Assembly (NCBI GenBank): GCA_041649655.1
Contig: JBAZMO010000001.1
Coordinates: forward strand, 173 to 64,172
DNA length: 64,000 bases
Source of the DNA: Patescibacteria group bacterium
GTDB lineage: Bacteria; Patescibacteriota; Patescibacteriia; 2-01-FULL-39-33
Direction of reading: 5' to 3'
The notes beneath the pieces are model-generated. The model had not been told where the DNA came from, ran no database searches, and saw only the letters and a list, made by a program, of their open reading frames with translations. Each line of letters starts with the position of its first letter. The first letter of the stretch is position 1. A program made the translations under genes and the position numbers. Below are positions 5,112-45,700 of this stretch, in pieces.

Positions 5112-6842
5112 TTATTTTTTTTCTTCAATTTCTTTTTTGATATTTTTTATGAAGTCCTCAATCTTGACAGCTCCGAGATCGCCCTCGATTCTTTTTCTAA
5201 CGGCGACGGTTCCAGCCGTTTGTTCTTTGTCGCCGACTACCAAGATGTAGGGCGTTTTTTGTTTTTCGGCGTTACGGATCCGTTTGCCCAGCGACTCGTC
5301 GGCGTCATCCAATTCGGCGCGCAGGCCGGCGGCTTGGAGTTCTGTTAGGATTTTTTGTCCGTAACCGTTGAATTTTTCCGAGACCGGAATAATGACCGCT
5401 TGGACGGGTGAGAGCCAAGCCGGAAAAGCGCCGGCGTAATGCTCGATCAGGACGCCCAAGAATCTTTCTAGCGATCCGTAGATGACGCGATGGATCATGA
5501 TCGGGCGTTTTTCCTGTCCGTCGGCGTCGATGTAGGCCAATTGGAAGCGTTCCGGCAGATTCATGTCGAGTTGGATAGTACCGCATTGCCAGGTGCGGCC
5601 GATGGCGTCTTTGATGTGGATGTCGATTTTCGGTCCGTAAAAAGCGCCGTCGCCCTCGTTGATTTTGTAGTCCTTGCCGGTGCCGTCCAGGGCTTCTTTC
5701 AGGCCGGCGGTCGCGGTTGCCCAGGCCTCATCGCTGCCGATGGATTTTTCCGGCCGGGTTGACAACTCCAGATGATATGACAAGCCGAAAGCGGCATACA
5801 TTTGATCGACCAGATTAAGCACGCCCAAGATCTCGTCTTTGATTTGGTCGGGACGCATGAAGATATGGGCGTCGTCTTGATGGAAGGCGCGGACGCGGAA
5901 CAATCCGGACAAAACGCCGGAGAGTTCGTGGCGGTGCACTAGGCCGATTTCGCCCCAGCGCAGCGGCAGGTCGCGGTAGGAATGCAGATCTTCTTTGTAC
6001 ATCAGCAGGCCGCCCGGGCAGTTCATCGGCTTGATGGCGAATTTTTCTTCGTCAATCGTCGTCTCGTACATGTTTTCGCGGTAATTTTCCCAGTGGCCGG
6101 AAATCTCCCAGAGGCGTTGCGACAGCATGATCGGCGTCTTGATTTCGCTGTAGCCGGCTTCGGCGTGCATTTGGCGCCAGTAAGCCAGCAGTTCATTCCA
6201 GACAGCCATGCCCTTTGGTTTGAAGAAAGGAAAGCCCGGCCCTTCGTCATGAAAGGCGATGAGTCCCAGCTCTTTGCCGAGTTTGCGGTGGTCGCGTTTT
6301 TCCGCTTCGGCGATCATTTCCAAATGCGCGGCCAATTCTTCTTTGGTTGCGAAAGCCGTGCCGTAGATCCGCTGCAGCATCTTGTTTTTTTCCGAGCCCT
6401 TCCAGTAGGCGCCGGCGATCTTCATCAATTTGAAAGCGCCAAGTTCCTTGGTGTTGTTGACGTGAGGCCCTTTGCATAAATCAGTGAAATCGCCGACAGT
6501 ATAAAAACTGACTTCCGTCGCTCCGTCAGCGGCCAAATCGCGGATCAGTTCCTGCTTATAGGGCTGTCCGGCCATTTTTTCCAGCGCCGCCTCGATCGGC
6601 AAGTCGAATTTTTCGAAGGGCAATTTTTGCTTGATGAGCTTGGCCATTTCGGCTTCGATTTTTTTCAGGTCTTCGGGAGTGAAGGTCTGTTGGCCGAGAT
6701 CGAAATCATAATAAAAGCCGTCGTCGATTGTCGGGCCGATGGCGAATTTTACCTGATTCCCGAATAGCTCTTGCACGGCGTAAGCCAGAAGATGCGAAGT
6801 GGAATGGCGGATTTCGTTGAGATTTTCTTTGGTGTTTGGCAT
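5112..6842 (-). CDS. thrS: threonyl-tRNA synthetase (no N-terminal TGS domain; begins in the editing domain)
   Basis: HSTSHLLAYAV and DLCKGPHV editing-domain zinc motifs. Class II aaRS motifs 2 and 3. C-terminal anticodon-binding domain. 576 aa. Confidence 0.95.
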   Translation of the reverse strand: MPNTKENLNEIRHSTSHLLAYAVQELFGNQVKFAIGPTIDDGFYYDFDLGQQTFTPEDLKKIEAEMAKLIKQKLPFEKFDLPIEAALEKMAGQPYKQELIRDLAADGATEVSFYTVGDFTDLCKGPHVNNTKELGAFKLMKIAGAYWKGSEKNKMLQRIYGTAFATKEELAAHLEMIAEAEKRDHRKLGKELGLIAFHDEGPGFPFFKPKGMAVWNELLAYWRQMHAEAGYSEIKTPIMLSQRLWEISGHWENYRENMYETTIDEEKFAIKPMNCPGGLLMYKEDLHSYRDLPLRWGEIGLVHRHELSGVLSGLFRVRAFHQDDAHIFMRPDQIKDEILGVLNLVDQMYAAFGLSYHLELSTRPEKSIGSDEAWATATAGLKEALDGTGKDYKINEGDGAFYGPKIDIHIKDAIGRTWQCGTIQLDMNLPERFQLAYIDADGQEKRPIMIHRVIYGSLERFLGVLIEHYAGAFPAWLSPVQAVIIPVSEKFNGYGQKILTELQAAGLRAELDDADESLGKRIRNAEKQKTPYILVVGDKEQTAGTVAVRKRIEGDLGAVKIEDFIKNIKKEIEEKK

Positions 6843-7820: not shown

Positions 7821-7906
7821 TTGATAACCAAGTGCAAATCGTTCTTTCATACGCAGGTCTTCGGATCTGCTTTTTTTTGCGTTCAACTTGCGTTAGACGC
7901 TTAATT

Positions 7907-9640
7907 ATGGTAAATTATAGCCATCAATTTATGGATTATGCCATTGAAAAAATCAAACGCGAGTTGATTGAGGCCGTGGCCGCGGCCGTCGGCCAGCCGG
8001 TAGACAAGTCGAAACTGGAAGTGACTCGGCCGCCGGAAGAGAGTTGGGGCGATTTTAGCGTATCTTGTTTTTATCTGACTAAACTCCTGCGCATTTCGCC
8101 CAATCAGATCGCCCAGGAATTGCAAAGCAAAATTTCCGCCAAGGGCTCAATCAAGTCCGTGAAGAATATCGGTCCCTACCTTAATTTTTATTTGGATGAC
8201 AAGCAATTGATTTCCAGAGTTATTAAAGAGATTAAAAGTAAGGGCGAAAAATACGGCCGCCGGCCGGCCGTCAAAGAAAAAATCATGGTGGAGTATTCCC
8301 AACCCAATACTCATAAGGAATTCCATATTGGTCATTTGCGCAATGTTGTTCTGGGATCATCACTAGTCAATCTGATCCGCGCGTCAGGCGCAAAAGTGAT
8401 CGCCGCCAATTATATCGGCGATATCGGCTCGCATGTCGCTAAGACGCTGTGGGTCTTGGAAAAATTCCATCAGAGCGAGCTGGAGCCGGCGCAGCACAAG
8501 GGCCAGTATTTGGGCAAATTGTATGCCGAAGCGGTTAACTTGTGCGAAGCTAATGAAGAGCATAAGCAAGAGGCCGCCGAAGTCCAAAAAAAATTGGAAA
8601 GCGGCGACAAGCATTTGACGGCTTTATGGAAAAAAACCAGGCAATGGTCATTGCAGGAATTCGATGGCATTTATGATACTCTGGGCGTCAAGTTTGACAA
8701 AGTTTTTTTTGAGAGCGAAGTTGAGAAACCGGGCAAGCAGATGGTAGCTGAGTTGTTGGAAAATAAAATCGCCGAGCGATCTCAGGGCGCAGTCATCATT
8801 AATTTGGAAAAATACGGCCTGAAGCAATTCTTGCTGTTGAAGTCCGACGGTTCGTCTTTGTATTCGACTAAGGAACTGGCGCTGGCCAAATTGAAATTCG
8901 AAAAGTACAAAATCGACGCCTCCTATGTCGTGGTCGACAGCCGCCAGAGTTTTTATTTCCAGCAATTTTTCAAGACACTGGAAGTGATCGGCTTCCGCAA
9001 GAAGACCGCGCATATCGCTTATGAATTCGTCACTTTGCCGGAGGGTGCGATGGCTTCCCGCAAGGGTAATGTGGTATTATTCGAGGATTTGTTGGCGGAG
9101 ATGACGGCTTTGGCTGAGGCGGAAACTGCGCAACGGCATGGCGATTGGTCGGAAGCGGAGATTAAAACCGTGGCGAATAAGATCGCTTTAGCGGCCATTA
9201 AATTCTCGATGATTCGAGTCGGGCGCGGCAGCGCGATTGTCTTTAATCAAGCTGAGGCCTTGTCATTCGACGGCTATTCCGGCCCTTATCTGCAGTACAC
9301 TGTTTCTAGGATTAATAGCTTGCTTAAAAAAGCCAAAGCCGGTCCGGCCAAAGAGGCGGATTACTCGCTTTTAAACGAGGCATCGGAAAGAGAGTTAGTC
9401 ATCAAGCTGGCACAATTCCCGGAAACGATCTCGATGGCCGTTGAAGAATTCGAGCCGAGCCGGCTGGCGCAATACTTGTTCGAATTGGCCAAGATTTTTT
9501 CCGGCTATTACCAAGCCGTGCCGATTTTGGGTTCTCCGGCCGAGACCGCCGCGGCGCGTTTGGCATTGGTTGCTTCTGTCAGGCAGGTGCTCGCCAATGG
9601 CTTGTCGCTTTTGGGCATTGAAATTCTGGAGCGGATGTAG
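7907..9640 (+). CDS. argS: arginyl-tRNA synthetase
   Basis: HIGH-type motif variant (HIGHLRNVVLG). DALR anticodon-binding C-terminal domain. Overall ArgRS-like sequence. Start assigned to ATG at 7907 (MVNYSHQF...). Confidence 0.9.
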   Translation: MVNYSHQFMDYAIEKIKRELIEAVAAAVGQPVDKSKLEVTRPPEESWGDFSVSCFYLTKLLRISPNQIAQELQSKISAKGSIKSVKNIGPYLNFYLDDKQLISRVIKEIKSKGEKYGRRPAVKEKIMVEYSQPNTHKEFHIGHLRNVVLGSSLVNLIRASGAKVIAANYIGDIGSHVAKTLWVLEKFHQSELEPAQHKGQYLGKLYAEAVNLCEANEEHKQEAAEVQKKLESGDKHLTALWKKTRQWSLQEFDGIYDTLGVKFDKVFFESEVEKPGKQMVAELLENKIAERSQGAVIINLEKYGLKQFLLLKSDGSSLYSTKELALAKLKFEKYKIDASYVVVDSRQSFYFQQFFKTLEVIGFRKKTAHIAYEFVTLPEGAMASRKGNVVLFEDLLAEMTALAEAETAQRHGDWSEAEIKTVANKIALAAIKFSMIRVGRGSAIVFNQAEALSFDGYSGPYLQYTVSRINSLLKKAKAGPAKEADYSLLNEASERELVIKLAQFPETISMAVEEFEPSRLAQYLFELAKIFSGYYQAVPILGSPAETAAARLALVASVRQVLANGLSLLGIEILERM

Positions 9641-10290: not shown

Positions 10291-10406
10291 TCTTAGCCGT
10301 TGAAACCGTCCGTCTGCCGGGCGGTTTTTTTGATCGATTCGCTAAGTTATGGTTGACTTTCATAGGACTTTTCTGGTATATTTCAGATATTAAATTCGCA
10401 TCATTT

Positions 10407-13337
10407 ATGTCAACAGCCAAATCCAATTCGAGCGCCGGGACAGAAAAAAAATGGATCAACCCGATTCCTGAAAGAGAAAAGGAGATTCAGAAGTTTTGGG
10501 AAGATCAGAAAATTTTTGAGAAATCCTTGCAGCAAACTAAAAATGGCCAGGCCTATTCTTTTTACGATGGTCCGCCTTTTGCCACTGGCCTGCCGCATTA
10601 CGGTCACATGGTCGCCAGTTTGATGAAAGATGTCGTACCGAGATTTTGGACGATGCGCGGGCGTTATGTCGAGCGGCGTTGGGGCTGGGATTGTCATGGT
10701 TTGCCGATTGAGAATATCGTGGAAAAGGAATTGGGTTTCAAAAGCAAGAAAGACATCGAGGATTACGGCGTGGCCAGGTTCAATGAATATTGCCGCAGCA
10801 AGGTTTTGGGTTATGCTGGGGATTGGAAAAAGACTATTGCGCGTTTCGGCCGCTGGGCGGATATGGAGCATCCCTACCAGACCATGGATTTGGATTATAT
10901 GGAAAGCATCTGGTGGGTGTTCAAGGAACTGTATGATCGCGGCTTAGTGTACGAGGGCTATAAATCCATGCATGTCTGCCCCAGATGCGAGACCACTTTA
11001 AGCCAGCAGGAAGTCAGCGAGGGCTATAAAGATATCAAGGACTTATCAGTGATCGCTAAATTCGAACTAACCGATGAGCCGGGAACTTATGTCTTGGCTT
11101 GGACGACGACGCCCTGGACTTTGCCGGGCAATGTGGCTTTGGCGGTGGGGGAAGAGATTGAATATATTGAAGTAAGAATCATGAATCATGAATTGCGGAC
11201 TAATGAATTATGTATTTTAGCTAAGGCGCGGCTGGTGGATATTATGGGCGATAAAGAGTATGAAATAGTTAAAGAATTAACAGGAAAAGAATTAGTCGGC
11301 AAGAAATATAAGCCGTTGTTTCCGTATTACGAAAGCGATGAGGCCAAGGCTAAAATTCCTAACGCTGAAAACTTGTATACTATTGTAAGCGCTGATTTCG
11401 TGACGACTGAAGATGGCACTGGTGTGGTGCATATCGCTCCGGCTTATGGCGAAGAAGACATGCAGCTTGGCCGGGAAAAGGACTTGGCTTTCATCCAAAA
11501 TGTCACCTTAAGCGGCAATTTCAAAGATGAGGTCGTTGATTTCGCCGGCCTGAATGTTAAGCCGATAGGGGAGACCCAAAAGACAGATGTGGAAATCATT
11601 AAGTACTTGGCTGATAAGGGATTATTGTTTGCTAAAGAAAAATATGAGCATAGTTATCCGCATTGCTGGCGTTGCGATACTCCGTTGATTAATTACGCTA
11701 CCAGTTCGTGGTTTGTTAAAGTCACTGATATCAAATCGAAGGCCTTAAAATACGCTCAGGATATCAATTGGTCGCCGGATCATATTAAAGAAGGCCGTTT
11801 TGGCAAATGGCTGGAAGGCGCGCGCGATTGGTCGATTTCCCGCCAGCGTTTCTGGGCGTCAGTCATTCCGATTTGGAAATGCGAGTGCGGAGAAATGAAG
11901 GTTTACGGTTCAGCGGCTGAGTTGGAAAAGGACAGTGGTGAAAAAATCACTGATTTGCACAAGCATTTTGTCGATCAGATTGAAGTGCCATGTTCTTGCG
12001 GCCGGAAAATGAAACGGATTCCCGATGTTTTGGATACTTGGTTTGATTCCGGTTCCATGCCCTATGCCCAGCAGCATTATCCGTTTGAAAATAAGGAAAA
12101 ATTCGAGGCCGGTTTTCCGGCGGAATTCATTGCCGAGGGTATTGATCAGACCCGCGCTTGGTTTTATTATCTGCAGGTGATTGCGGCGGCGATCAAACAA
12201 GGCGCGGCCTTCAAGAATGCGATTGTCAACGGCATTGTCGTAGCTGGCGACGGCAAGAAGATGTCCAAAAAATTAGGCAATTATACCGAGCCGGAAGTTA
12301 TCATGGATCAATACGGCGCTGATGCCCTGCGTTATTATCTTTTGACTTCGCCGGTGATGCAGGCGGAGAATCTGAGCTTTGACGATAACGGCGTCAAAGA
12401 AGCGATGCAGAAAGTTGTCATGCTGTTGAATAATATTTTGAGCTTTTATAAATTGTATGAGATTGACGGCGATCAAACGGCCGGCGTCTCGGAAAATATT
12501 TTGGATCAATGGCTGTCGGCCAAGCTTAACGCTCTAGTCAGGGATGTGACCGCCGCCATGGAGGCCTATGATTTGCCGCGCGCCACTCGGCCATTGGCGG
12601 AATTTATCGATGAATTTTCCACTTGGTGGCTGCGGCGCAGCCGCGATCGTTTCAAATCGGACGACGAGAAAGATAAACAGCAGGCGTTAAGGACTTTCAG
12701 ACGTGTTTTAATCGAATTGTCGAAAGTAATGGCGCCGTTCACGCCGTTTGTCGCCGAATATGTCTATAAAGAAATCGGCGGAGAGTTAGAGTCGGTGCAT
12801 TTGGAAAAATGGCCGGCGGCCGGAGAAATCGACGGGAAAATTTTAGAGCAAATGGATCAGGCGAGAAAAATCGTTGAATTGGGGCTGGCGAAGCGCGCCG
12901 AAGCCGGAATCAAGATCAGGCAGCCTCTTGCTTCGCTCAAATTTCCAATTTCCAATTTCCAATTTCCAAAAGAATCGGAACAATATTATGATTTGATTCG
13001 TGATGAGATTAATGTTAAAGACGTGCTCGGAGAAGAAATTGAAAATCTTGAACTCGATTTTGAATTAACCGAAGGATTGAAGCAGGAAGGCGCTTTACGC
13101 GAATTGGTCAGGACGATCAACGGCCAACGCAAAGAGGCGGGGCTGACAATTAAGGATGAGATTAAAATCAGCTGGCAAAGCGACGGCGAAATTGTCAGAA
13201 ACGTCCTGGCTGATCATAATTTTTCAGAAGAATTAAAAAAGTCAACCCTCACCAGTGAATTATTAGAAGCGGAAAATGACGCCAAGCCGGTTGATATCAA
13301 CGGCGAGAAAGTTAAAATTAAAATAAAGAAAATCTGA
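10407..13337 (+). CDS. ileS: isoleucyl-tRNA synthetase
   Basis: PPFATGLPHYGH HIGH motif, KMSKKLGN KMSKS motif, CP1 editing domain, zinc ribbon CPRCETTL. Carries the in-frame repeat at 12939..12969. Confidence 0.95.
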   Translation: MSTAKSNSSAGTEKKWINPIPEREKEIQKFWEDQKIFEKSLQQTKNGQAYSFYDGPPFATGLPHYGHMVASLMKDVVPRFWTMRGRYVERRWGWDCHGLPIENIVEKELGFKSKKDIEDYGVARFNEYCRSKVLGYAGDWKKTIARFGRWADMEHPYQTMDLDYMESIWWVFKELYDRGLVYEGYKSMHVCPRCETTLSQQEVSEGYKDIKDLSVIAKFELTDEPGTYVLAWTTTPWTLPGNVALAVGEEIEYIEVRIMNHELRTNELCILAKARLVDIMGDKEYEIVKELTGKELVGKKYKPLFPYYESDEAKAKIPNAENLYTIVSADFVTTEDGTGVVHIAPAYGEEDMQLGREKDLAFIQNVTLSGNFKDEVVDFAGLNVKPIGETQKTDVEIIKYLADKGLLFAKEKYEHSYPHCWRCDTPLINYATSSWFVKVTDIKSKALKYAQDINWSPDHIKEGRFGKWLEGARDWSISRQRFWASVIPIWKCECGEMKVYGSAAELEKDSGEKITDLHKHFVDQIEVPCSCGRKMKRIPDVLDTWFDSGSMPYAQQHYPFENKEKFEAGFPAEFIAEGIDQTRAWFYYLQVIAAAIKQGAAFKNAIVNGIVVAGDGKKMSKKLGNYTEPEVIMDQYGADALRYYLLTSPVMQAENLSFDDNGVKEAMQKVVMLLNNILSFYKLYEIDGDQTAGVSENILDQWLSAKLNALVRDVTAAMEAYDLPRATRPLAEFIDEFSTWWLRRSRDRFKSDDEKDKQQALRTFRRVLIELSKVMAPFTPFVAEYVYKEIGGELESVHLEKWPAAGEIDGKILEQMDQARKIVELGLAKRAEAGIKIRQPLASLKFPISNFQFPKESEQYYDLIRDEINVKDVLGEEIENLELDFELTEGLKQEGALRELVRTINGQRKEAGLTIKDEIKISWQSDGEIVRNVLADHNFSEELKKSTLTSELLEAENDAKPVDINGEKVKIKIKKI
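12939..12969 (+). repeat. (AATTTCC)n heptamer tandem repeat inside ileS, encoding FPISNFQFP
   Basis: AAATTTCCAATTTCCAATTTCCAATTTCCAA; the same 31 nt occurs in leuS at 24654..24684. Confidence 0.8.
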
Positions 13338-23953: not shown

Positions 23954-26857
23954 ATGACATACAAGGAGTTCTTGAATGATGGAGGAGAGAAGAAGTGGCA
24001 GGATCAATGGCTGAACACAAAAATTGATCGAGCCGATGACTTCAGTTCCAAGCCCAAGAAATATGTGCTGGATATGTTCCCGTATCCGTCCGGCGCGGGC
24101 TTGCATGTCGGCCATCCGGAGGGTTATGCGGCGACTGATATTTATTCTCGTTATTGGCGGCTGAAGGGATTCAATGTCCTGCATCCGATGGGCTGGGACG
24201 CTTTCGGTTTGCCGGCGGAAAATTACGCCATCAAAACCGGCACCCAGCCGCAATTGACCACTGATAATAATGTCGCCACTTTTAAACGCCAAATTCAGTC
24301 GCTTGGCTTTTCTTATGATTGGGATCGGGAAATCAATACCACTGATCCGAAATATTATAAATGGACGCAATGGATTTTTTTGCAATTGTTCAAAAAAGGC
24401 CTGGCTTATGAGGCGACCGTGCCGATTAATTTTTGTCCGTCATGTTTGACTGGTTTGGCTAATGAAGAAGTCAAAGACGGCAAATGCGATCGCTGCGGCA
24501 CGTCGGTCGAGAAGAAGGATTTGCGCCAATGGATGTTGAAGATTACCGCTTATGCCGACAGGTTGTTGGAAGGGGTTGATAAGCTGGATTGGCCGGAGTC
24601 GATCAAGGCCCTGCAGCGGAATTGGATCGGCCGATCGGAGGGAGCAACGGTGAAATTTCCAATTTCCAATTTCCAATTTCCAATTGAGGTTTATACTACT
24701 CGCCCCGACACTCTTTTTGGCGCGACCTATATGGTTTTGTCCCCTGAACATAATCTTTTGGATGAATTGAAACCTAGAATTACTAATTGGGAAGAGGTTC
24801 AGGATTATATCGCTAAAGCCAAGAATAAATCCGATCTGGAACGGACAGAACTTAATAAGGATAAGACCGGCGTTGAGCTGAAGGGCATTAAGGCGATTAA
24901 TCCGGTCAACGGCCAGGAGATCCCGATCTGGATTTCCGATTATGTGCTGGCGTCTTACGGCACCGGCGCGATCATGGCGGTGCCAGCTCATGATGAGCGT
25001 GATTTTGAATTCGCGAAGAAGTTCGGTTTGCCGATCATCGAGGTGATTATTCCGGAAAGGATTGATAAAAGGAATCCGCCCGTAGCCGGCAAAGAAAAGG
25101 TTGAGAGAAAAAATGTCCAAGTCATTGTTCGCAATCCTCGGACGGGAAAAATTCTTTGCCTTCATTCCCATAAATACGGCTGGGTCACTTTTCCAATGGG
25201 CGGCGTCGGGACTGATGAAGATCTGTTGGCTGCCGCTAAGCGCGAGGTGATAGAAGAAACCGGTTATCGGAATTTAATTAATGGCGAAGTGCTCGGCGGG
25301 CAAGTTCGCGCTGAATATTTCGCTAATCATAAGGATGTTAATCGAGTTTCTTTCACTAACTTAGTTCGATTTGATTTGGCTGATGAAGAACAGATCGGAA
25401 TTTCTGAGGAGGAAAAAATAGCCGAGAATGAAATCCTTTGGAAAAATCCGGAAGAATTAACGTTGGATTTCATGGTTCATGCGGAAATGGATGTTTGGCT
25501 GGAACGGATTAAAAAAGGCGATATCGCTTATACGGACGTCGATAATGGTGTCATGATCAATTCGGAATTTTTGAACGGCCTTGTGCCGGCTGAAGCAATC
25601 GGCAAGATGATCGACTGGCTGGAAGAAAAAGGTGTCGGCCATAAAGCGATCAATTACAAATTGCGCGATTGGGTTTTTTCTCGCCAAAGATATTGGGGCG
25701 AACCGATCCCGCTGGTGCACTGCGAGAAGTGCGGTCCGCCAGCTGGCGGATGTGCCATTCCGCTAAATGAAAAGGATTTGCCATTAACACTGCCCCAAGT
25801 GGAAAAATACGAGCCGACCGGCACCGGCGAATCGCCGCTCGCGACAATCGATGAGTGGGTCAATACGATTTGCCCGAAATGCGGCGGTCCGGCTAAGCGC
25901 GAGACCAACACAATGCCGCAATGGGCAGGCAGTTCTTGGTATTGGCTCAGGTATATTGATCCGCATAATGATGAGGCCTTTGCCGATCAGGATAAATTGA
26001 AATACTGGCTGCCGGTCGATTTGTATTTGGGCGGAGCTGAGCATGCGGTTTTGCATTTGCTTTATGCTCGTTTTTGGAATATGGTTTTGTTTGATCTGGG
26101 CGTTGTGCCGCAAGAAGAGCCGTTTGCTAAGTTGATTAATCAGGGTTTGATTCTGGGCGAAGACGGCGAGAAGATGTCGAAGTCGCGCGGCAATGTGGTC
26201 AATCCCGATGAAATCGTCAAGGACTTCGGCGCCGACACTTTCCGTTTATATGAGATGTTTATGGGGCCATTGGAAGCGATGAAGCCCTGGAGCACCAAGA
26301 ATATTCTGGGCGTCCATCGGTTTTTGAATAGGGTTTGGGAGTTAGTTCCCCTCCTTTCCAGGGAGGGGCTAGGGGAGGTTTCGGAAGGGAATGACAAGGC
26401 AGAATTAGAAATTTTATTTAATAAGACCATTAAAAAAGTCGGCGAGGATATTGAGGCGATGAGTTATAATACGGCTATTTCAGCGCTGATGGTTCTGGTC
26501 AATAAATTCCAGTCGGCTGGTGGTATTAATCAAGAGCAATTAGAAAAATTTTTAATCATCCTGTCGCCGTTCGCGCCGCATTTGGCAGAAGAATTGTGGG
26601 GAAAGTTAGGCCAGGTGGAAAGTATTTTTAAAGAAAAGTGGCCGGAGTATGATGCAAGCAAAGTCATTGACACGGAAATTGAAATGCCGGTGCAGATCAA
26701 TGGCAAAGTACGGGCTAAATTGAAATTGCCGGCCAATATTAGTGAAACTGAGGCGAAAGCAGCTGCTCTTAGTGATGAGAATGTCAAAAAATATCTGGTT
26801 GGCGAACCAAAGAAGATTATTTTCATTAAAGGCAAGTTGATCAGTATCGTGGTTTAG
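23954..26857 (+). CDS. leuS: leucyl-tRNA synthetase carrying an internal Nudix hydrolase domain
   Basis: [20 protein letters not shown] motif, CP1 editing domain, KMSKSRGN, C-terminal KGKLISIVV. About 130 extra aa between the post-editing [19 protein letters not shown] block and [12 protein letters not shown] contain a full Nudix fold. Confidence 0.95.
24654..24684 (+). repeat. (AATTTCC)n heptamer tandem repeat inside leuS, encoding FPISNFQFP
   Basis: AAATTTCCAATTTCCAATTTCCAATTTCCAA, identical to the ileS copy. Confidence 0.8.
25115..25525 (+). other. Nudix hydrolase domain embedded in LeuRS (Nudix box at about 25198..25266)
   Basis: [51 protein letters not shown] is a perfect GX5EX7REUXEEXGU Nudix box, with the preceding beta-strands typical of the fold. 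E. coli LeuRS has only about 45 aa in the corresponding segment. Confidence 0.75.
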
Positions 26858-26877: not shown

Positions 26878-27840
26878 ATGAAGAATATCAATGAGCAGAC
26901 AGAGCGGATCAGGGTTAGTCGTTATGAATTAGGCGGCGGAGAAATGCTGGCTTTATCTGAAAGCAATCCGCAAGAATTTTTATTAAAATATGGCGTTGAG
27001 CCGGCTTTAGAAATGTTGGAGCAAGGTCGTTATGATTATGATACGATAGTGACTAAATCTCAGCGGACGGAAGAAGAGGATAAAATTTTTATTGAAAAAT
27101 GGAAATCGGTCATCGGTTATGATCCTGACGGCAATCCTGGCAATTTGCCCTGGGTAGGACAAATACGAGATAGATACCGGCAAATATTATCGCCGGGTTT
27201 TTGTCAGTTTATTGATAAAGATAATTTTTCTGAATTCGGCGGAGAAGTCCGGTTCTATCTCTCCATTAAACAAGATTATTTATTGGATTTTTTGGAGCAG
27301 TTAGCGGGGGCGTTTGAGGAGCTGCCGGATTTATTCGCTTTCAAGATAAATATCAGCAATCAGGAGAGAAATGAAAATGCTGTTTTGTATTTGACTGAGG
27401 CCGCTACTCGTTCTGAAATAGATAAGTTGCTGCAAGTTCTTAGCGGTTTGCGTGTTCAGATCCATGATTCACAAGAGGTCTTTAATGGCTTTGACTTTCA
27501 GACGCCATTCAGCCAGCCGATTGTGGAAGAGTCAAACCGAGCCATTATCGGCCAACTGGCTTTTAATCCTTTTGCCAGCGCTAAGGGCAAAGTTAAATTA
27601 AGTTATGACGGCAGAGAAATCGGTCGGGCGCGAACTGTTAATCAGCTGTTTTCCAAGTTGGTCGAGCTAGTCAGATATTGTCGTCCCACCGATAGTTCCC
27701 CGGAGGAAACCGCTCAAATGATAGCGGCCGAAGCCCAAGTAACTTGCAGCTTTGAAGACGGCAGTGAGGAGAAAATTTTAAGTTTAGTCCAATACTGCCA
27801 GCTTTGTTTGCAAAAACTTTCTGATATCTGCAAATCTTAA
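26878..27840 (+). CDS. hypothetical protein
   Basis: 320-aa ORF; no recognisable motif. Confidence 0.5.
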   Translation: MKNINEQTERIRVSRYELGGGEMLALSESNPQEFLLKYGVEPALEMLEQGRYDYDTIVTKSQRTEEEDKIFIEKWKSVIGYDPDGNPGNLPWVGQIRDRYRQILSPGFCQFIDKDNFSEFGGEVRFYLSIKQDYLLDFLEQLAGAFEELPDLFAFKINISNQERNENAVLYLTEAATRSEIDKLLQVLSGLRVQIHDSQEVFNGFDFQTPFSQPIVEESNRAIIGQLAFNPFASAKGKVKLSYDGREIGRARTVNQLFSKLVELVRYCRPTDSSPEETAQMIAAEAQVTCSFEDGSEEKILSLVQYCQLCLQKLSDICKS

Positions 27841-27885: not shown

Positions 27886-29523
27886 TTAATGAAAGATCAA
27901 TTCGATCACATCGTCTTTTTTGAGGCGGCTTTGAGTGAAATTGGCGATTAGAGTGCCGTTAATAATGACGCTGACTTTTTCGGCCATATAACCGCAGTTA
28001 TCCAGCCAGTCGGCAATCGATGTTTCACCGGCAATGATTAGGCGTTTGCCTTGGCAGGGAACCAGAGTAATCGAACTGGCTACTAACAATTGTTTGACTA
28101 ATTCTTTCAATTCATTGATCGCGCGGACTCCGGCCTCTCGAATGAATTCCTTTTTGATCACTAAGTCGTAGATGTTGCTAATTAACTTAGCAAGTTCTCG
28201 GAGTAGCGGATCAGGCGTTTTATCGGGGTGGACGAGTTTTTGCCAAATGTGGAAACCGCGTTGAAGCTCTTTAGTCGGCGGGTCGGCTTGGCCGCACAAG
28301 ATATGGCAGAGCCATTCGCGGCAGTAACTGTCGTATTGGTTGATTTTGAAGATATCGATCTCATTTTTTTCAAAAATCGTCTGCAGGCGGGCCAGCGGAT
28401 TTTGGCCGTCGCCCTCAGGCATCTTGACTTTCGGTTGAGGCGTGGCTTTTTCCATTGGCGTTTGCTGTTGGATCGCCGGCTCCTTGAGTGTCGCCGGTTC
28501 AGTGTCCGCCGAAGCCGATCGAAAGTATTCCCAATCCAGACCATCGAACAATTTGGGATTAACTTGGCATAATTCGGCGATCCCGGCCGTTACCGACGGC
28601 CGCAAGCCCGGGGATTGCTTGACCGCTTCAGCCAGGATATTGCCAAAAGTTGATTTGATTGGGTCTGACAGCCGATCCGGTTTCTTGAAGATCTTGATGA
28701 CTTTTTCCGCCGCTTTTTTTCCGGCTCGGGCTTCCGGCGGCAGATTATTGTTGAATAGCAACCGTATGATTGTGAATAGTTGGCCTAGGGCTTCAGTCAT
28801 CTTCCCGGTTTGGCTGGCTGTTTGAAGTGAGGCAGCGACTGCGAATCCATTGGCGGTCAAACTGTTCAAGTTGGAAGCGATGATCTCTTGGGCAAAAATA
28901 TGTCCGGGATATTCCGGCTTGGTTTCAGTTATGGATTTGGCGCCGGATTTTTTGCTTTTCGAGCCATCGCTTGGCCCGGTTAAGAGTAGTCGGCCCTGGC
29001 TCGTTTCCGGCAGGGACAACCGGGCTTGGCCGGTCGTTTGATCGTGCGCAATCAAGCCGGTCGGCTCGCCGGTCCAGAACGATCTGACTTTCTTAATGAC
29101 CGAAACCGGCAATTCCTCGTCGACTCGTTTGGCTAAATGAGGGTTAACTTCGAACAGGATGGAAATGATCGTTTCCTTGTCTTCCGGATGAAGATGAAGA
29201 TGGATCCGGTAGAGCATCGATTGGACGGCGCGGATCATTATTTCTCGGCCGTCCTCCGAGCCGAAGCAATTATTGATTCGCCGCAGCGTTTCGTGCTGCG
29301 CGGTTCGATCCTGCGTCATTAGCCAGGTGAGAAGGCCGTAAAGATAGGCGCAATGAATGTCATCTTTGGTTATCGCCCAGCATCTTGCTGCCGTCGAATT
29401 GCGGACATTGATGAAAACCAACTGCCAAAATTGATGGACAGCTGCTTTGATCAAGCGCTGATCATTGAAACGTTCATTATCCGGTGGCAGGACGCCTAAG
29501 CCAGCCAGTTGTTTCTTAGACAT
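27886..29523 (-). CDS. hypothetical protein with a beta-grasp-like C-terminus
   Basis: Start assigned to ATG at 29523 with a strong RBS GGAAGGAGGACGACTT. Promoter on the minus strand: TTGACA (29629..29624), 17 nt, TACAAT (29606..29601). Confidence 0.55.
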   Translation of the reverse strand: MSKKQLAGLGVLPPDNERFNDQRLIKAAVHQFWQLVFINVRNSTAARCWAITKDDIHCAYLYGLLTWLMTQDRTAQHETLRRINNCFGSEDGREIMIRAVQSMLYRIHLHLHPEDKETIISILFEVNPHLAKRVDEELPVSVIKKVRSFWTGEPTGLIAHDQTTGQARLSLPETSQGRLLLTGPSDGSKSKKSGAKSITETKPEYPGHIFAQEIIASNLNSLTANGFAVAASLQTASQTGKMTEALGQLFTIIRLLFNNNLPPEARAGKKAAEKVIKIFKKPDRLSDPIKSTFGNILAEAVKQSPGLRPSVTAGIAELCQVNPKLFDGLDWEYFRSASADTEPATLKEPAIQQQTPMEKATPQPKVKMPEGDGQNPLARLQTIFEKNEIDIFKINQYDSYCREWLCHILCGQADPPTKELQRGFHIWQKLVHPDKTPDPLLRELAKLISNIYDLVIKKEFIREAGVRAINELKELVKQLLVASSITLVPCQGKRLIIAGETSIADWLDNCGYMAEKVSVIINGTLIANFTQSRLKKDDVIELIFH

Positions 29524-29651
29524 AAGTCGTCCTCCTTCCAGTCCGGTGTTGGGCTTTTTTGCTTTTATTCCTAATTTCATTGTCAATGAGCTGATAGTTT
29601 ATTGTAGGCCGCTTATTAATTATTGTCAAGTGTTTTTAAGGTTTTTTAGAA

Positions 29652-39503: not shown

Positions 39504-42500
39504 ATGATTAAGAGACAAATCGTTTCTAATCAAAGGTCGTTTTTCAAAAACGCTAGAGCCGCTACTATCGGTTCCTTAGCGTTTTTTATTGCTTTATTTT
39601 TAATGCCGGCTTTGGCTTGGGCGGCCGGCGATATTCCGACATTATCCGGAGTAGTCGAGGGGACTGGTTTGCCCATGGTTAATCTGACGGTCTTTTTGCT
39701 GGCGATCTTGCGGATCTTTTTCGGCTTATTGGGAGTGCTCGCGATCGCGCTTTTGATGTATGGCGGCTTCATTTGGATGACCGCGGCCGGCGAGCCGGAT
39801 AAAGTCACCAAAGCCAAACAAATCATCTATAATACGATTATCGGCTTGATCGTGATCTTTTCCGCTTTTGCCATTACCTCTTTTTTAATGGCTTGGCTGA
39901 ACGGCTTGGGTGGCGGCGGCGATGGCGGCGGCACGACTCGGATTCCCGGCGGCAATGGCGATTGGGGCCGTTCGGCGATTGGGGCCGGACCGATTCAAAG
40001 CGTTTATCCGGCTCCTAATGCGGTCAATGTCCCGATCAATACCAGGATTGCTGTCACTTTTAAAGTTAATATCGATCCTTCCAGTATCTGCGAATTAGTC
40101 GCTGGCGAAACTTATTGCAATGGCGGATTGATGAAGAATGTCACGATTTGCGCGATTAGTTCAACCAGTTCCGATTGCCTGCCGGATCCGGAATTCAACG
40201 CTAATGTTTATGCCGATACCAAGGTCTACCAAGCGACTTCCAGCGATCAAAGGACTTTCATTTTTTCAACCAATAATTATTTAGGCCTTGATGACAATCA
40301 AGTCAGGATTTTCAAGGTTCATTTGGGCGCCGACATAGAAGCGGCTGCTACCAATGAATCGGTTTTTGCTAATCTTCGTTATCCTGATTATGCCTGGGCT
40401 TTCAAGACCAACGGCGTTCTTGATTTCTCGCCGCCTGAGGTGGCTCGAATGGAAATTTATCCCAATCCGGATAATACTCCCGACACTTACAATGTCGGCG
40501 CGCAGTCGACTGTTGGCTCGGCTTCAATTACCGCCTCAATCACCCCTCGACTGGAAACCCCACCGACGATCCAAGGCCGTCCGTTTACTGGTACGCCGTT
40601 GGTTGATATATCTCTAACTGAGGATCTTGATAATGATCCAATTATTCCAGATGATTATTTGAAATTAGGCACCTCTGGTTTTAGTGTTACTAGCACTAAT
40701 TCTGTAAAAAAAATATCATTTCAGATTAGTCCGGCTGGCGAATATATTGAATTTGATATTTCACCGGATGCGGCCAGTATCTTAGGCGTTACTTTTTCTA
40801 GAACAGGAGTTTGCGCCAATAAGGAACGTTGCTTGTTAGTAGATGATAATAAGCGTGTGACGTTGACCGGCTCCGGATTAACAATCGCTTCAACTGGCAA
40901 TTTTTCCGAGGCGCGCGGTTCAAAGTGGTCATTTACCGTCTCTCCCGCTGTTAATGGCGATGAAGTGATTTTGGCTAACGGTACTAATAAGATTAATTTT
41001 ATTTTTGCGGATACATCTTTGCCTGCTAAAATTACTAAGCGTTCAGTGGCGAGCGATGGCCGGACGATAGTCAACACTGATTATTTCACTGTTAAGTCGG
41101 CTGCGACTTCGACGGCCGGCTATCTGAAGGGCCTTAATGACGCCCTGATTGCTCACGCTGGCAATTTTGTAACATCAACTGTTGCTACTAATAAAATAAT
41201 CGTCACGCCGAAAGCGGCTGGCGCTAATTCTTTAAGCTTAACGACTAATAGCTCGGCGCTGGCTATCGACGGCAATTTATCAGGAGAAGCCAGGGTTACC
41301 GCTCGAACGCCTTTGCCGCCCGGTTCAAAGGGCGATGCCTACAATAATTCGGTTTTCCGGGTGTCTTTTACCGAGGCAATCAGCCCGATCAATATTGAAC
41401 AGCATGTCATAATCAAGATTAACGGAGATATTGTCACGGCTTCCACCACTTTGACTAATCAATACCGCACGCTGGAATTTTTGGGCACTAAGCCGTGCGG
41501 CGTTAACAGTTGCGGCAAACAGATGTATTGCTGGCTGGATCCCAACAGCGCCGATGTTTCTTTGCCGGCGAGTATAGAAATCGTGGCGGCCGGCTTGAAG
41601 ACCTGTGTCGGGACGAATGATGATTGGTGCGTTAAATTCGGCGGCACTTGCCAAGTCGGAGTTGATGGTGGCCGTTGCCAATTAACCAATGGCTTGCATT
41701 ATCCTCAGGCCGATGTTTCAGCTGATGGCGTTACCGACATGGCTAATAATTCTTTCAACGGCAATTTTAATAAATCAGAGAATAATAAAGGCGTCATGGT
41801 CGGCAATGCTGAAGGCCGATCGGGAACCGGCGCTGGCAGATCTGGCCAGCCGGCTTATAACGCCAATAGCATTACAACACCAATACACTTCGACGGCTTA
41901 GTCACTTCTTTTGCCAACGACGGCGATGCCAATGGTGATAACTTTTCTTGGTCATTCTTCGTTTCCACTCAGATTGATCGGGCCGCTCCGTTGATTGCCA
42001 AAATCTTACCAACCGGCGACAGTTCCCATGGTATCGGCCTTGATCAGACCTTCCGCGATCCGGTCACTTTAGTTTTTAATGGCTTGATGCGTCTGGCGAC
42101 TCTTCAGCCGGGCTGGGGTTATGGCGAGCGCGAGGCCGACCCCCGTTGGCATACCAGGTATTTGATTTTGAAAACGATTACGGCCGGAGCCAATCCGATC
42201 GGCTATTGGGTTAGCGCGCTCAACTTGGATGAGGGTGATTTTTCGACCGAGGCCGGCCGAGGCGATGGCCTGGCTGATTATACTGAAGCCCGCATCAATC
42301 ACAGCGCTTACGATCAGGCGGTTAATTACGGTCCGCTCGCCGGTAATGGTATTGAGTCAATCACTCAGAATTGCCTTTTGCCCGGTAATGGTCCGATAGA
42401 TGCCGGTGCTACCGGCGATAATAAGTGCGTTTATAATTCTGATGGTTCTGGCAATACTTCCGGTTGTGTCACTGATCTGGATATTGACTCGAATAGACGC

Positions 42501-42710
42501 GTTACCTCGACTAATCCGTCTTCTTATGGCTATTTGCTTTGCAAAGATATTGACGGAGCGGTTTTGTGCGCCAGTGACAAAAAATGCAAGGCCCATGTTG
42601 CTACTTCCACAAATTCTGTTTTGAATGGCAGTTGGATTATTACCAAGGATAAATCCATCACTGATTTTACTACCGGAGAAACCGGCTGCTGCTTTGGCAA
42701 GTGTTTTTAA
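39504..42710 (+). CDS. giant secreted/surface protein 1 (1068 aa) with conserved N-terminal helical-hairpin membrane module
   Basis: Signal peptide then two TM helices around the invariant MYGGFIWMTAAGEPDKVTKAK. Gly-rich linker. Long Ser/Thr/Asn/Gly-rich beta-type extracellular region. C-terminal Cys cluster CCFGKCF. Confidence 0.7.
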   Translation: MIKRQIVSNQRSFFKNARAATIGSLAFFIALFLMPALAWAAGDIPTLSGVVEGTGLPMVNLTVFLLAILRIFFGLLGVLAIALLMYGGFIWMTAAGEPDKVTKAKQIIYNTIIGLIVIFSAFAITSFLMAWLNGLGGGGDGGGTTRIPGGNGDWGRSAIGAGPIQSVYPAPNAVNVPINTRIAVTFKVNIDPSSICELVAGETYCNGGLMKNVTICAISSTSSDCLPDPEFNANVYADTKVYQATSSDQRTFIFSTNNYLGLDDNQVRIFKVHLGADIEAAATNESVFANLRYPDYAWAFKTNGVLDFSPPEVARMEIYPNPDNTPDTYNVGAQSTVGSASITASITPRLETPPTIQGRPFTGTPLVDISLTEDLDNDPIIPDDYLKLGTSGFSVTSTNSVKKISFQISPAGEYIEFDISPDAASILGVTFSRTGVCANKERCLLVDDNKRVTLTGSGLTIASTGNFSEARGSKWSFTVSPAVNGDEVILANGTNKINFIFADTSLPAKITKRSVASDGRTIVNTDYFTVKSAATSTAGYLKGLNDALIAHAGNFVTSTVATNKIIVTPKAAGANSLSLTTNSSALAIDGNLSGEARVTARTPLPPGSKGDAYNNSVFRVSFTEAISPINIEQHVIIKINGDIVTASTTLTNQYRTLEFLGTKPCGVNSCGKQMYCWLDPNSADVSLPASIEIVAAGLKTCVGTNDDWCVKFGGTCQVGVDGGRCQLTNGLHYPQADVSADGVTDMANNSFNGNFNKSENNKGVMVGNAEGRSGTGAGRSGQPAYNANSITTPIHFDGLVTSFANDGDANGDNFSWSFFVSTQIDRAAPLIAKILPTGDSSHGIGLDQTFRDPVTLVFNGLMRLATLQPGWGYGEREADPRWHTRYLILKTITAGANPIGYWVSALNLDEGDFSTEAGRGDGLADYTEARINHSAYDQAVNYGPLAGNGIESITQNCLLPGNGPIDAGATGDNKCVYNSDGSGNTSGCVTDLDIDSNRRVTSTNPSSYGYLLCKDIDGAVLCASDKKCKAHVATSTNSVLNGSWIITKDKSITDFTTGETGCCFGKCF

Positions 42711-42744
42711 GTTATACAATACAAAAAGAAATTTTAATTCTTCA

Positions 42745-45700
42745 ATGTTAGTTCGAACAAAAAAAACACTTTTAGTCATTCTTGTAATTCTGGCGGCAGC
42801 GACTTTAGCGTTGCCGGCGGCGGTTTTGGCTGCGGGCGAAGTCCCGTCGATCGGCTTATTCGGCAGTATTTTCGGCACAGCGACTTTGGCGCAGATCATT
42901 ATTCGGATCATTCAGCTGTTTATGGCGCTTCTCGGCGTCATTGTTGTGGTATTTTTGATGTATGGCGGCTTTATTTGGATGACGGCCTCAGGCGATCCGG
43001 ACAAAGTCACCAAGGCCAAGCGTATCATCTTGCAGGCGATTATCGGCTTGGTTATAATTTTTTCGGCTTTTGCCATCTCCGCTTTCATTTTTGATCGTTT
43101 CGGCCCGCCGGACGGCGGTTCTCCGACTGAGCCCTGCGAAACTGTCGGAGAAACCGACAATTGTTCGGTCGGCGGCTGCACCGGTTTGCGGACTTGTCTG
43201 GAAGGCAATATCTGGGGTCCATGCCAATTCGATCCTAATTGCGATCCGATCAATCCTCCTTATAACCTAATTCCGCCGGTCATCACTTATATTGACCCGG
43301 CTTGGGACGTTAATGGCGATACTGATCCGAGCAATATCACGGAGGCCTCTACGGCTGATGACATTTCCAATGGTGCTCCGGGCAATGCCATCAGTATTTT
43401 CGGCCGTTATTTCGGCCAAGTCAGGGGCAAGGTTTATTTTGTCAGAAATAGTGACAATATTAGAACCGAGGCCGACATTGCCGATTGTTTCGGCGCTTGG
43501 ACTAGCAATCAGATCATTGTCGTGGTGCCGGACGGTTTGGATCAAATGGATATCAGCTCGGAAACGGCCATCGTCAATGCCAGTCCGCTCAGGAATTACA
43601 ATGTAATTGTCGAGAAAAATTCGACCGGGGCGACGTCTTTGGTCTCCAATGACTGGGGGTTTCAAGTCAATAAAATCGAACGGCCGGGGATTTGTTCTAT
43701 GGTTCCCAAGAGTGGCGCCTATCCGGCGACGACGACGATTGTCGGTTGGAGATTTCCCAGCGCTTCGCCGCAGAATGTTTTGTGGTCGCTGTCGCCTTAT
43801 CATGCAACATCAAGCGCTAGTGCTTGGACCGTCAGTTCGACGATCGATACCGTGCCGCAGGATTTAAGCGGCCGCGCTCTGGTAAATATTTTTAATGGCG
43901 TTGTCAAGAGTAATTCATATTTGTTCATGGTTTCTCGAGGCCGATTGGATGATCCTTGCGGCTATGATAATCGTTCATGCGACGAGGATATTAATACTTG
44001 CGGCCAAGATGAGGGCGTAGTTTTGGCCTGCCAATTCTGTTCTGATGATCCGGCTAATGATGATCATTATCAAGCCGGCTGTGATTTGTCGAAGAATTGC
44101 ACTTGCCAAATCAACTCGAAAGACGCCTGCGTTTATAATTCTGATCAGTTGCAAAATGATAAGCAGGCCTGCTTTATTGGCGGTTGCGCCGGCTTTAAAT
44201 ATTGCACTGATAGAGGTGTTTGGAGTAGCACTTGTGTGCCATCAGCAGTCGATTGCGTGCCATATCTGGGCAATCGTTCCGGCATCGCCTCATTTTCTTG
44301 GGCTTTTAACGCTTTGAAACGGCCGATAGCCGGCATGAGCTGTAAGTCGGATATTTGGAGCGATGATACTTGCGATCTTAACGGCTGTTTTGACGCCAAT
44401 CTCGGCTGTGATACTTCTCAAACGACTGAAGAGTGGGTTGAGATTTATAATCCGACCGATAGTGCGATTGATATCAGTGATTTAAGAATCAGCTATATTG
44501 ATGATTATTTCGGCACTGAAGAAAAAACCTTTTTTTCTTTTTCTAATCCGACTGGCAAATTTATCGGCGGCAAGAGTTACATGGCCCTAAGGAACACCGG
44601 AGCCCGTTTGCCGAATATTTCTGGAAAAATAATTTTAAATAATAATTTCAGCCAAGTTGATATTGTTGAGTATGGCAATAATGATTTATCGGCGGCTTTT
44701 TCGCCCGCTTCTTTTGGTCGGAAAATAGACGGTTTGGATACCGGCAACGCGTCTGATTTTGTTTATTTTCCTAATTCGAGCGGCGATTTTCCTAACAATA
44801 CGGCCAGTTCGACGATCGGTGATCATTTGGTTATAAATGAGGTTTCTTTGGCTCATGATGCCTGTACTTGCGTGCCGAAGTCGCAATTATGCGCCCCTGG
44901 CGAAGTTGATGCCCAGACCTGCGATCCGGTCGGGCAGTGCCGGCAGGCGAGGACCTGTTCGGCCGACGGCCATTGGGGCGCTTGCGTTCAAAGCGATCCC
45001 AATTGCATTCCTTATCCGCTTGTGCCGGCCTCGACTATCGCTTCTTACAGCTGGTCGTTCGGCGCGAATGCCGGGCTCTCTGGCGCCGGTCCGATGGTGG
45101 TTAAGTCGTGCGACGGTTCGGTCGATTGCAGCCGAAACAGTTTGCCCAGCCCTTCGCCCTGGGAAGAGTGGACGCCGGAAAATTCCAATGTGGAAAATCA
45201 AGCCAGTATCGATGCCTGTTTGAATGCCACGATTTTTGCGCGTTTTACACAAACGATGGATCAAGCGACTTTGAATACGGAGAATATTAAATTGTATAAA
45301 TATAATAATAGTAACGCAACTTGGGAAGATAATCGCTTAATTGATGATATTGAATCATTACCATTAAGTGACAGTGGTGTAGATTCTTTCAATTTAAAGC
45401 TTAATCAGAATTTAATTTCAAGTACCACTTATCGTGTTTATTTAAGCAAGTCGATTCGTGATGGATTGGGGCGCAATTTGATTGATACTCCTAATGGTCC
45501 GCGGCAGGAATTATGCGGCGGTGTCGGCGATGGCAATGGCGTCTGCTGGAGTTTTAAAACTCGCGCAGCCAGCGATCCTAATAAGATGTGCGAAGTCGGC
45601 TGCGTCAATTGCGGTCCGGACAAGTACTTCAATCGTTATTACGGCCAAAAGAAACAGCACGCCGCTTATCCGATCAGCATTGATAATTCTTGCATTGTGC

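Follow-up and report, generated by a model that had tools for sequence, protein, structure and literature searches.

A Nudix Domain Nested in the Editing Domain of LeuRS

The subject of this work is a leucyl-tRNA synthetase (LeuRS) that carries a Nudix hydrolase domain within its CP1 editing domain. Its gene, leuS, occupies positions 23954..26857 on the forward (+) strand of a 64,000-nucleotide stretch of DNA, hereafter the window, from a Patescibacteria group bacterium. An earlier annotation of the window, made from the letters alone (the original prediction), had pointed to a Nudix segment in this gene, and all of the peptides named there lie in this single unbroken reading frame. The encoded protein, 967 residues long, is a bacterial-type LeuRS. 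It scores 1064.9 bits against the NCBIfam equivalog TIGR00396 (leuS_bact; cutoff, 548.4) and gives a full-length collinear match to Thermus thermophilus LeuRS (PDB 1h3n; E 2e-229). A Pfam scan returns the usual LeuRS families together with NUDIX (PF00293). An identical protein, P0001, from a Patescibacteria group bacterium metagenome-assembled genome, is present in NCBI, JGI, and ENA records.

The host synthetase is intact, with its synthetic motifs and editing residues untouched by the insert. Conservation of host residues was assessed in an alignment of 89 LeuRS sequences. The HIGH signature of the class I catalytic core (HVGH, residues 51–54; 24104..24115, +) is invariant at H51, V52, G53, and H54. 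The N-terminal 152 residues of CP1 (residues 222–373; 24617..25072, +) contain the TTRPDT motif and the editing-site Asp of AHD(347); H346 and D347 show no variation, and conservation is at least 90% at T248, T249, R250, P251, and D252. After the insert, the C-terminal 33 residues of CP1 (residues 525–557; 25526..25624, +) are recognized both by the editing-domain profile PF13603 once the insert is deleted, as described below, and by the T. thermophilus alignment. The rest of the catalytic core, KMSKS (residues 740–744; 26171–26185), the anticodon-binding domain, and the C-terminal domain follow (25625..26857, +). The HVGH and KMSKS signatures, the threonine-rich editing motif, and the editing Asp are conserved in relatives both with and without the insert, and they are shared with the LeuRS enzymes of T. 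thermophilus (1h3n) and Escherichia coli (4aq7). Unlike those two enzymes, the window LeuRS has a 151-residue Nudix domain in place of the tip of a 15–16-residue CP1 loop, and it is without the leucine-specific domain that they have before KMSKS. That domain is missing just upstream of the signature (26165–26175): residues 738–740 bridge T. thermophilus residues 582–637, leaving ∼583–636 with no counterpart, and the leucine-specific domain is therefore absent.

The Nudix insert spans residues 374–524 (151 residues; 25073..25525, +). Landmarks around it are the end of a conserved editing-domain block (residues 336–365), VQVIVRN from residue 388, and GVMINSEF from residue 532. In the alignment with 1h3n, query residues 12–365 pair with T. 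thermophilus 10–362 and query residues 530–738 with 379–582; query residues 366–529 (164 residues) stand in place of a 16-residue loop, T. thermophilus 363–378. The closest insert-free relative, P0006 (locus L081), is 86% identical over 2415 nucleotides (nt) and differs by one clean in-frame 453-nt indel, at window positions 25073..25525, between '...IDK' and 'AYTDVDNG...'. The extent first given for the insert, 25060–25540, is thus correct to within ∼15 nt. Its placement after CP1, ahead of the catalytic core, is not. In the native protein, PF13603 matches residues 222–371 over profile positions 1–146 of 185 (E 5.5e-61). When residues 374–524 are deleted in silico, the match runs end to end (positions 1–185 of 185; residues 222–406 of the deleted protein) with a gain in score from 205.7 to 215.2 bits. 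Because the profile is cut at position 146 natively and is complete once these residues are removed, the Nudix domain lies within CP1, some 35 residues short of the CP1 C terminus. It is set in frame into a loop in the C-terminal third of CP1 that has only ∼15 residues in insert-free relatives, and the protein thus has three nested levels: a Nudix domain inside an editing domain inside a Rossmann fold.

The original prediction described the segment as a complete, nondegenerate Nudix domain, and profile and conservation data bear this out. The Pfam NUDIX profile matches residues 385–516 over positions 3–131 of 134 (E 2.6e-12; 47.3 bits against a gathering score of 21.1), well past chance motif resemblance. 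The Nudix box, G416–Y438 (25199..25267, +), which corresponds to the catalytic, metal-binding helix, has the strict form GX5EX7REX2EEXG. It reads G416-GVGTD-E422-DLLAAAK-R430-E431-V-I-E434-E435-T-G437-Y438 and fits GX5EX7REUXEEXGU; REVIEETGY is residues 430–438 (25241–25267), and the glutamates of REx2EE are intact. Across 71 inserts, G416, G417, E431, and E435 are 100% conserved, and E422, R430, and E434, as well as R385, K460, and W496 outside of the box, are at least 96% conserved. The strict box is found in 75 of the 80 listed species-representative loci described below and in most of the Nudix-bearing proteins among the 120 top LeuRS homologues. Downstream of the box, in the post-box specificity region, lies a family motif, F456-A-x-H-K460-x-x-N463-R464, preceded by Y455 (25319..25345, +). 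Its conservation in the 71 inserts is 97% for K460, 94% for R464, 93% for N463 and A457, and 85% for H459. The K and N-R of this motif are also conserved in stand-alone family members and in a prolyl-tRNA synthetase (ProRS), and the K..R pair aligns with that of AvrM14, a Nudix protein considered below.

Structure modeling supports an independently folded excursion, as had been anticipated. The AlphaFold2 model of the full-length protein, built from the 89-sequence alignment, has a mean predicted local distance difference test score (pLDDT) of 89.3 and a predicted template modeling score of 0.81; residues 366–531 have pLDDT values of 90–96, apart from one loop at 71. Modeled alone, the insert reaches a pLDDT of 94.1 with the same secondary structure as in the full-length model. 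The modeled fold is the α/β/α sandwich of Nudix proteins. These models predict that the insert is autonomous and folds on its own.

Distribution, Inheritance, and Relatives of the Insert

The architecture is not a one-off chimera but is widespread in Patescibacteria; many such proteins are already in public databases, named only 'leucine--tRNA ligase'. Among the 120 best LeuRS homologues, 69–71 have the Nudix insert at the identical site, down to ∼53% overall identity, and some of these are encoded on contigs of up to 957 kb; sibling LeuRS proteins of about 800 residues without the insert occur in the same set. A scan of one genome per GTDB species with two subtype-specific peptide patterns found a relative in at least 110 genomes. 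The patterns came from a narrow alignment (A3); the sequences of a broader one (A2) diverged too much to be back-translated for a scan of loci. The count of 110 is a lower bound because A3 detects only the 'PERIDKRN / AEYFA.HK' subtype. Almost all of the 80 listed loci among these 110 are labeled as Patescibacteria lineages, including Paceibacterota and Kaiser-, Taylor-, Yonath-, Wildermuth-, Wolfe-, Yanofsky-, Kerfeld-, and Buchananbacteria. When 1.84 billion cluster representatives were searched exhaustively with a profile, 170 matched at E ≤1e-30 and 565 at E ≤1e-10. A search of a 5.8-billion-protein index with the insert alone gave no match, which reflects the limit of the word index rather than rarity because the identical protein is present in that database.

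Misassembly, in which a chimeric contig would join a fragment of a Nudix gene into leuS, had been named as one of the findings that would undo the prediction. One feature is in its favor: the GC content at third codon positions of the insert is 0.41, below all 516 other 151-codon windows of the gene (minimum, 0.43; mean, 0.55). Nevertheless, no break interrupts the reading frame, and the editing domain picks up again in exact register. The same protein stands in the records of three databases, the architecture recurs on long contigs and in species-representative genomes from many studies, and both flanks are 86% identical in nucleotide sequence to those of a relative around a clean in-frame indel. 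An assembly artifact is effectively refuted, and we give it a negligible probability.

Outside of the conserved catalytic residues, the 71 inserts are only 18–86% identical to the query. The ratio of nonsynonymous (dN) to synonymous (dS) substitution rates against two close relatives is 0.05 and 0.08 for the insert and 0.08 and 0.09 for the LeuRS body, values that are only rough because dS is saturated (>1.4). These data show purifying selection on the insert, of the kind seen in an enzyme rather than in a decaying remnant.

The similarity of the insert does not follow that of its host. Relative to the query, the body of P0038 is 61% identical and its insert 82%; for P0007–P0013, the bodies are 80–83% identical and the inserts 28–32%; for P0023 and P0029, the bodies are 79% identical and the inserts 18–21%. 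Sliding windows place the break-points at about residues 361 and 525, the edges of the insert. Over 2485 pairs, insert and body similarity are correlated with a Spearman rho of 0.03. The query cluster (body identity of at least 75%) contains six insert types that are less than 50% identical to one another, along with insert-free members. At the species-representative locus L002, on a 30-kb contig, dN is 0.12 for the insert and 0.36 for the body. By the simple methods used, a neighbor-joining tree and identity matrices, the history of the insert appears to be uncoupled from that of LeuRS, and the module behaves as a cassette: its gains, losses, or replacements at this single site did not follow the LeuRS backbone. 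The low third-position GC content of the insert and the clean indel that separates it from P0006 fit the same picture. Exchange probably proceeds by homologous recombination through the highly conserved LeuRS flanks, including NS.F.NGL. Transposon and intein readings were rejected: there are no direct or inverted repeats at 25073 or 25525, and no Hint/intein or homing-endonuclease Pfam family occurs in the 967-residue protein.

Members of this Nudix family are found elsewhere, both within synthetases and next to their genes. Some LeuRS homologues hold two or three family copies, and a second LeuRS site lies near the N-terminal CP1 boundary (profile matches at E 1e-30 to 1e-156); in P0216, the Nudix domain occupies residues 231–377, before an intact editing domain. 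P0121 has three copies (residues 245–398, 418–564, and 725–903), as do P0122 and P0131 in similar form, the copies being tandem or dispersed; in P0121, the box of the middle copy is degenerate (GGPENGQT..AIAEIMEETG). At locus L094 (2762–4693, +), a 643-residue class II ProRS contains a family Nudix domain at residues 388–540 (E 1.4e-53), placed between the anticodon-binding and C-terminal domains and with the box variant AARKEILEESG. In addition, more than 100 clusters consist of stand-alone family proteins of 155–200 residues, in which the N-terminal strand, the box, and the K..NR motif are all present.

Gene context was examined for 10 stand-alone members, six of which adjoin genes for aminoacyl-tRNA synthetases (aaRSs). 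The gene for P0156 stops 1 nt before a Nudix-bearing leuS, and that for P0230 stops 2 nt before a leuS with an uninterrupted editing domain; the latter pair is a split form of the fusion. P0262 is encoded upstream of a class I aaRS-like open reading frame (ORF), P0227 between argS and ileS, and P0202 two genes upstream of the ProRS with the Nudix domain. P0318, the most abundant stand-alone member, is encoded 72 nt before thrS and miaA. The presence of one family in ProRS and beside leuS, thrS, and argS/ileS shows that the link is not specific to LeuRS, the synthetase named in the original prediction.

In the window itself, four aaRS genes are clustered within a span of 22 kb: thrS (5112–6842, −), argS (7832–9640, +), ileS (10353–13337, +), and leuS. 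The gap between argS and ileS holds a response-regulator-like ORF and a small ferredoxin-like ORF, as judged from their translations alone; in the related genome L086, a stand-alone family Nudix gene is found at the argS–ileS position. A second, free-standing Nudix gene of the window (4540–4974, +) encodes ∼144 residues and keeps its box intact (GHIEGGEGIEEAALREIKEETG). Its product has just 26% identity to the LeuRS insert and no A-x-H-K-x-x-N-R motif, and the gene is oriented tail to tail with thrS. Another group of free-standing proteins, P0312, P0333, P0330, P0298, P0308, and P0327 (240–273 residues), resembles an excised piece of LeuRS. In the P0312 type, the order is an editing-domain tail (FFIPAHNDLDWEYA..., with the editing Asp changed to Asn), a family Nudix domain, and then 'AYT..G..INS'. 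One protein of this type is encoded on a 171-kb contig labeled Clostridiales.

Predicted Activity and Alternative Explanations

Comparisons with characterized Nudix proteins bear on the substrate. In a profile search of the PDB, the best match is AvrM14 (1.6e-8), which extends over the whole domain including the K..R motif; lupin and Aquifex hydrolases of diadenosine tetraphosphate (Ap4A) match at 2.9e-8 and 5.5e-7, respectively, and Dcp2, RppH, DIPP, and ADPRase fall in a similar range. AvrM14 is an mRNA-decapping effector of flax rust (bioRxiv 10.1101/2023.11.14.566975). A single-sequence search of the PDB gives Dcp2 as the best match. Structure comparison places the insert closest to 2azw, a structural-genomics entry for an Enterococcus faecalis MutT/nudix protein, and gives RppH as the second-best match; many other neighbors are MutT/NUDT15-type. 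The 2azw protein is free-standing and 19% identical to the insert, and it allows no functional transfer. Identity to the Nudix Ap(n)A hydrolases (lupin 1f3y/1jkn, Aquifex aeolicus 3i7u, T. thermophilus Ndx1 1vc8, and Caenorhabditis elegans 1kt9) is only ∼20–25%, and the insert differs from them in its own A-x-H-K-x-x-N-R motif, its N-terminal β-strand extension, and its embedding in a synthetase. The Nudix enzymes of RNA 5′ ends, E. coli RppH (4s2w/6d13), Dcp2, and AvrM14 (8dp8), supply the top profile match and the second structural match, yet the insert falls far under the NCBIfam cutoffs for RppH and YtkD (NF001934–NF001938, TIGR02705). Scores for these equivalogs are 20–25 bits against cutoffs of 116–259 (23.4 against 154.4 for YtkD) and are confined to the Nudix box region. 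Among MutT 8-oxo-(d)GTPase equivalogs, only NF052459 (MutT1) gives a score, 18.1 bits against a cutoff of 475.

The residues Y455 and F456 lie 17–18 positions past the box; in the 71 inserts, F456 is 80% conserved, and the commonest residue at position 455 reaches 60–80%. They may correspond to a Tyr found at about this distance from the box in Ap(n)A hydrolases. In those enzymes, a conserved Tyr of the X-loop, on the C-terminal side of the Nudix motif, contacts the adenine of the substrate (PMC5389931). The chief producers of Ap4A and other Ap4N are the synthetases, and the asymmetric cleavage of Ap4A by Nudix enzymes yields ATP and AMP (PMC13627108).

The explanation that we favor, by a little over an even chance, is that the insert acts as a Nudix pyrophosphohydrolase of a Patescibacteria-centered family that is functionally tied to aaRSs. 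The LeuRS would still charge and proofread tRNA-Leu, and the extra domain would hydrolyze a pyrophosphate-containing nucleotide in cis. We infer the catalytic activity from the sequence, and the substrate less firmly. The relatives that act on polyphosphate bridges, the aromatic pair Y455/F456, and the role of aaRSs as a source of Ap4A favor dinucleoside polyphosphates, Np(n)N (Ap4A and others), as the most likely substrate class within this explanation, an assignment that stays tentative. Synthetases would make Np(n)N from the aminoacyl-adenylate and ATP, and asymmetric cleavage would give back ATP and AMP. Of the two activities put forward originally, Ap4A clearance stands as the best single guess, given that Ap(n)A hydrolases are among the nearest relatives and that the aromatic residues lie where they do, although RNA-decapping enzymes and RppH are equally close. 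Adenylate proofreading by the insert is chemically unlikely because, by our reasoning from Nudix chemistry, an aminoacyl-AMP is an acyl-phosphate and not a nucleoside diphosphate linked to another moiety X. It is also possible, though we would not put it at even, that Patescibacteria possess a dedicated aaRS-associated Nudix module, repeatedly built into synthetases, kept as an operonic partner of leuS, thrS, and argS/ileS, and swapped between lineages as a cassette, that would confer a so far unrecognized accessory activity on the translation apparatus in cis. This activity might be the immediate destruction of Np(n)N alarmones or cap precursors made by the synthetase, or the repair or decapping of tRNA ends.

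Several observations weigh against an aaRS-linked hydrolase of this kind. Very close LeuRS relatives, P0006 and P0014, function in its absence, so that aminoacylation does not require the insert. The family has a sub-branch in which catalytic residues of the box are lost (E to Q, RE to AE or ME; P0072, P0101, P0244, P0257, P0221, and copy 2 of P0121). Four of the 10 stand-alone members have no link to an aaRS: P0195 is encoded 4 nt after fpg, a MutT-like context, P0244 adjoins another Nudix gene, and P0362 and P0293 are in unrelated contexts. Because synthetase genes group together in these genomes, the six aaRS-adjacent contexts are not fully independent. Among solved structures, the closest one, 2azw, is uncharacterized, the nearest characterized relatives include RNA 5′-end enzymes beside Ap(n)A hydrolases, and no NCBIfam Nudix equivalog reaches its cutoff, the best being RppH at 24.9 bits against 116. 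Finally, unrelated enzymes (α/β hydrolase, GIY-YIG) are inserted in LeuRS proteins of the candidate phyla radiation (CPR), and LeuRS may thus be a permissive scaffold.

An alternative is a Nudix enzyme directed at RNA or tRNA ends, similar to RppH, Dcp2, or AvrM14, with tRNA bound to the synthetase, or RNA of another kind, as its target. Such an enzyme could remove a 5′ triphosphate, an Np4A or NAD cap, or a pyrophosphate placed by a toxin on the 3′ CCA, so that a tRNA would be repaired or licensed at the enzyme that uses it. The PDB searches are in keeping with this, with AvrM14, Dcp2, and RppH at or near the top, as are the identities of the best NCBIfam matches, RppH and YtkD. The LeuRS editing domain receives the tRNA 3′ end, and the insert is located on that domain; tRNA is also the sole ligand common to LeuRS, ProRS, ThrRS, ArgRS, and IleRS, and R385, K460, and R464 are conserved basic residues. 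The RppH and YtkD scores, however, are far under cutoff and come from the box region only, the ProRS insertion, which separates the anticodon-binding domain from the C-terminal one, is not close to any editing site, and the stand-alone members have no recognizable RNA-binding extension. We regard action on RNA ends as unlikely on balance. To a house-cleaning Nudix enzyme uncoupled from LeuRS we assign a similarly low probability. Such an enzyme would sanitize oxidized or noncanonical nucleoside triphosphates in the manner of MutT, or hydrolyze nucleoside diphosphate-X compounds generically; LeuRS would simply be a constitutively expressed protein that tolerates the domain in a streamlined genome, or the insert would be a nearly neutral hitchhiker spread by recombination. 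The patchy distribution, with the closest relatives lacking the insert, the uncoupled histories of insert and body, and the insertion of unrelated enzyme domains in CPR LeuRS and IleRS are all compatible with this explanation. So are the fpg gene beside P0195, the fpg gene ∼3 kb upstream of P0318, the name '8-oxo-dGTP pyrophosphatase MutT' given to several members by JGI, and the many MutT/NUDT15-type structural neighbors. Chance hitchhiking poorly explains the repeated entry of the family into synthetases, at two LeuRS sites, in up to three copies, and in a class II ProRS, or its operonic association with leuS, thrS, and argS. Purifying selection on the insert is as strong as that on the essential body, no MutT equivalog reaches its cutoff, and the insert is without terminal repeats or an endonuclease. 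A noncatalytic Nudix-fold module, either a ligand sensor similar to the domains of NrtR or TRPM2 (NUDT9H) that bind ADP-ribose or nucleotides or a structural or interaction domain that modulates LeuRS, is very improbable. Nonenzymatic Nudix domains are well-known (PMC5389931), and the degenerate-box sub-branch would fit such a role, but the window copy and about 90% of the inserts retain every catalytic residue of the box, and conservation peaks exactly on the metal-binding glutamates.

A search of full-text literature on CPR, Parcubacteria, and Patescibacteria turned up no description of a Nudix domain fused to LeuRS or another aaRS, in line with the original prediction; its coverage is incomplete, especially of subscription papers, and it is not proof of novelty. 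Both parts of the protein are ordinary, aaRSs with extra domains are known, and the sequence records exist, named only as LeuRS. What is added here is the second LeuRS site, the occurrence of two to three copies per LeuRS, the ProRS insertion, the stand-alone genes that adjoin aaRS genes, and the uncoupled histories of insert and host. The interest of the system lies in this recurrent link between aaRSs and one Nudix family, its nested architecture, and its exchange at the level of a domain. Ap4A and related dinucleotides are now also recognized as RNA 5′ caps. A Nudix-bearing synthetase is a natural experiment on how cells couple their production and removal, with controls built in: close relatives are without the domain, and some genomes encode both parts as separate genes. 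For CPR biology, the LeuRS illustrates that very small genomes build nested catalytic domains into their essential enzymes and that domains can be exchanged apart from the host gene. The family is a defined, testable target, the closest solved structure of which has no known function. If tRNA ends were the substrate, a new kind of tRNA quality control would be attached to an aaRS; if the module is dedicated to aaRSs, it would add a new functional class to the accessory domains of aaRSs, next to the editing domains.

Other Inserted Domains and Neighboring Genes

Further enzyme domains were noted in CPR synthetases. Many CPR LeuRS proteins (P0026, P0028, P0031, P0125, and P0139) have, beyond the Nudix domain, an insert of 125–200 residues after query residue 593 or near residue 243, and reach 1100–1310 residues in length; in several cases this insert is an α/β (serine) hydrolase (PF06821/PF00561/PF12146). 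In P0088 and P0089, 894-residue LeuRS proteins without the Nudix domain, a 94-residue GIY-YIG domain (PF01541) lies in frame in the editing domain after query residue 303. A CPR IleRS at L086 (5094–8498, +), whose gene follows argS and that of a stand-alone family Nudix protein, has a histidine-phosphatase domain, His_Phos_1 (PF00300) in its catalytic domain at residues 523–675 (E 1.4e-30). The known isoleucine--tRNA ligase family NF040702 of NCBIfam, whose members contain an N-acetyltransferase domain, is likewise a class Ia aaRS that hosts an extra catalytic domain. It differs from the window LeuRS in the class of the inserted enzyme and in the site, and the Nudix family is, in addition, encoded as an operonic partner and built into a class II aaRS.

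A defense-system reading of the locus was dropped, as PADLOC gave no match and the PHROGs matches were to generic Nudix families only. No tRNA genes were found within the window. The ORFs downstream of leuS, at 26878–27840 (+, 320 residues) and 27886–29586 (−, 566 residues), have no Pfam match at E ≤1e-4. Farther along, the region 39504–52491 (+) contains a 1068-residue ORF with a type IV secretion system pilin domain (T4SS-pilin, PF18895), followed by an overlapping ORF of 3288 residues.

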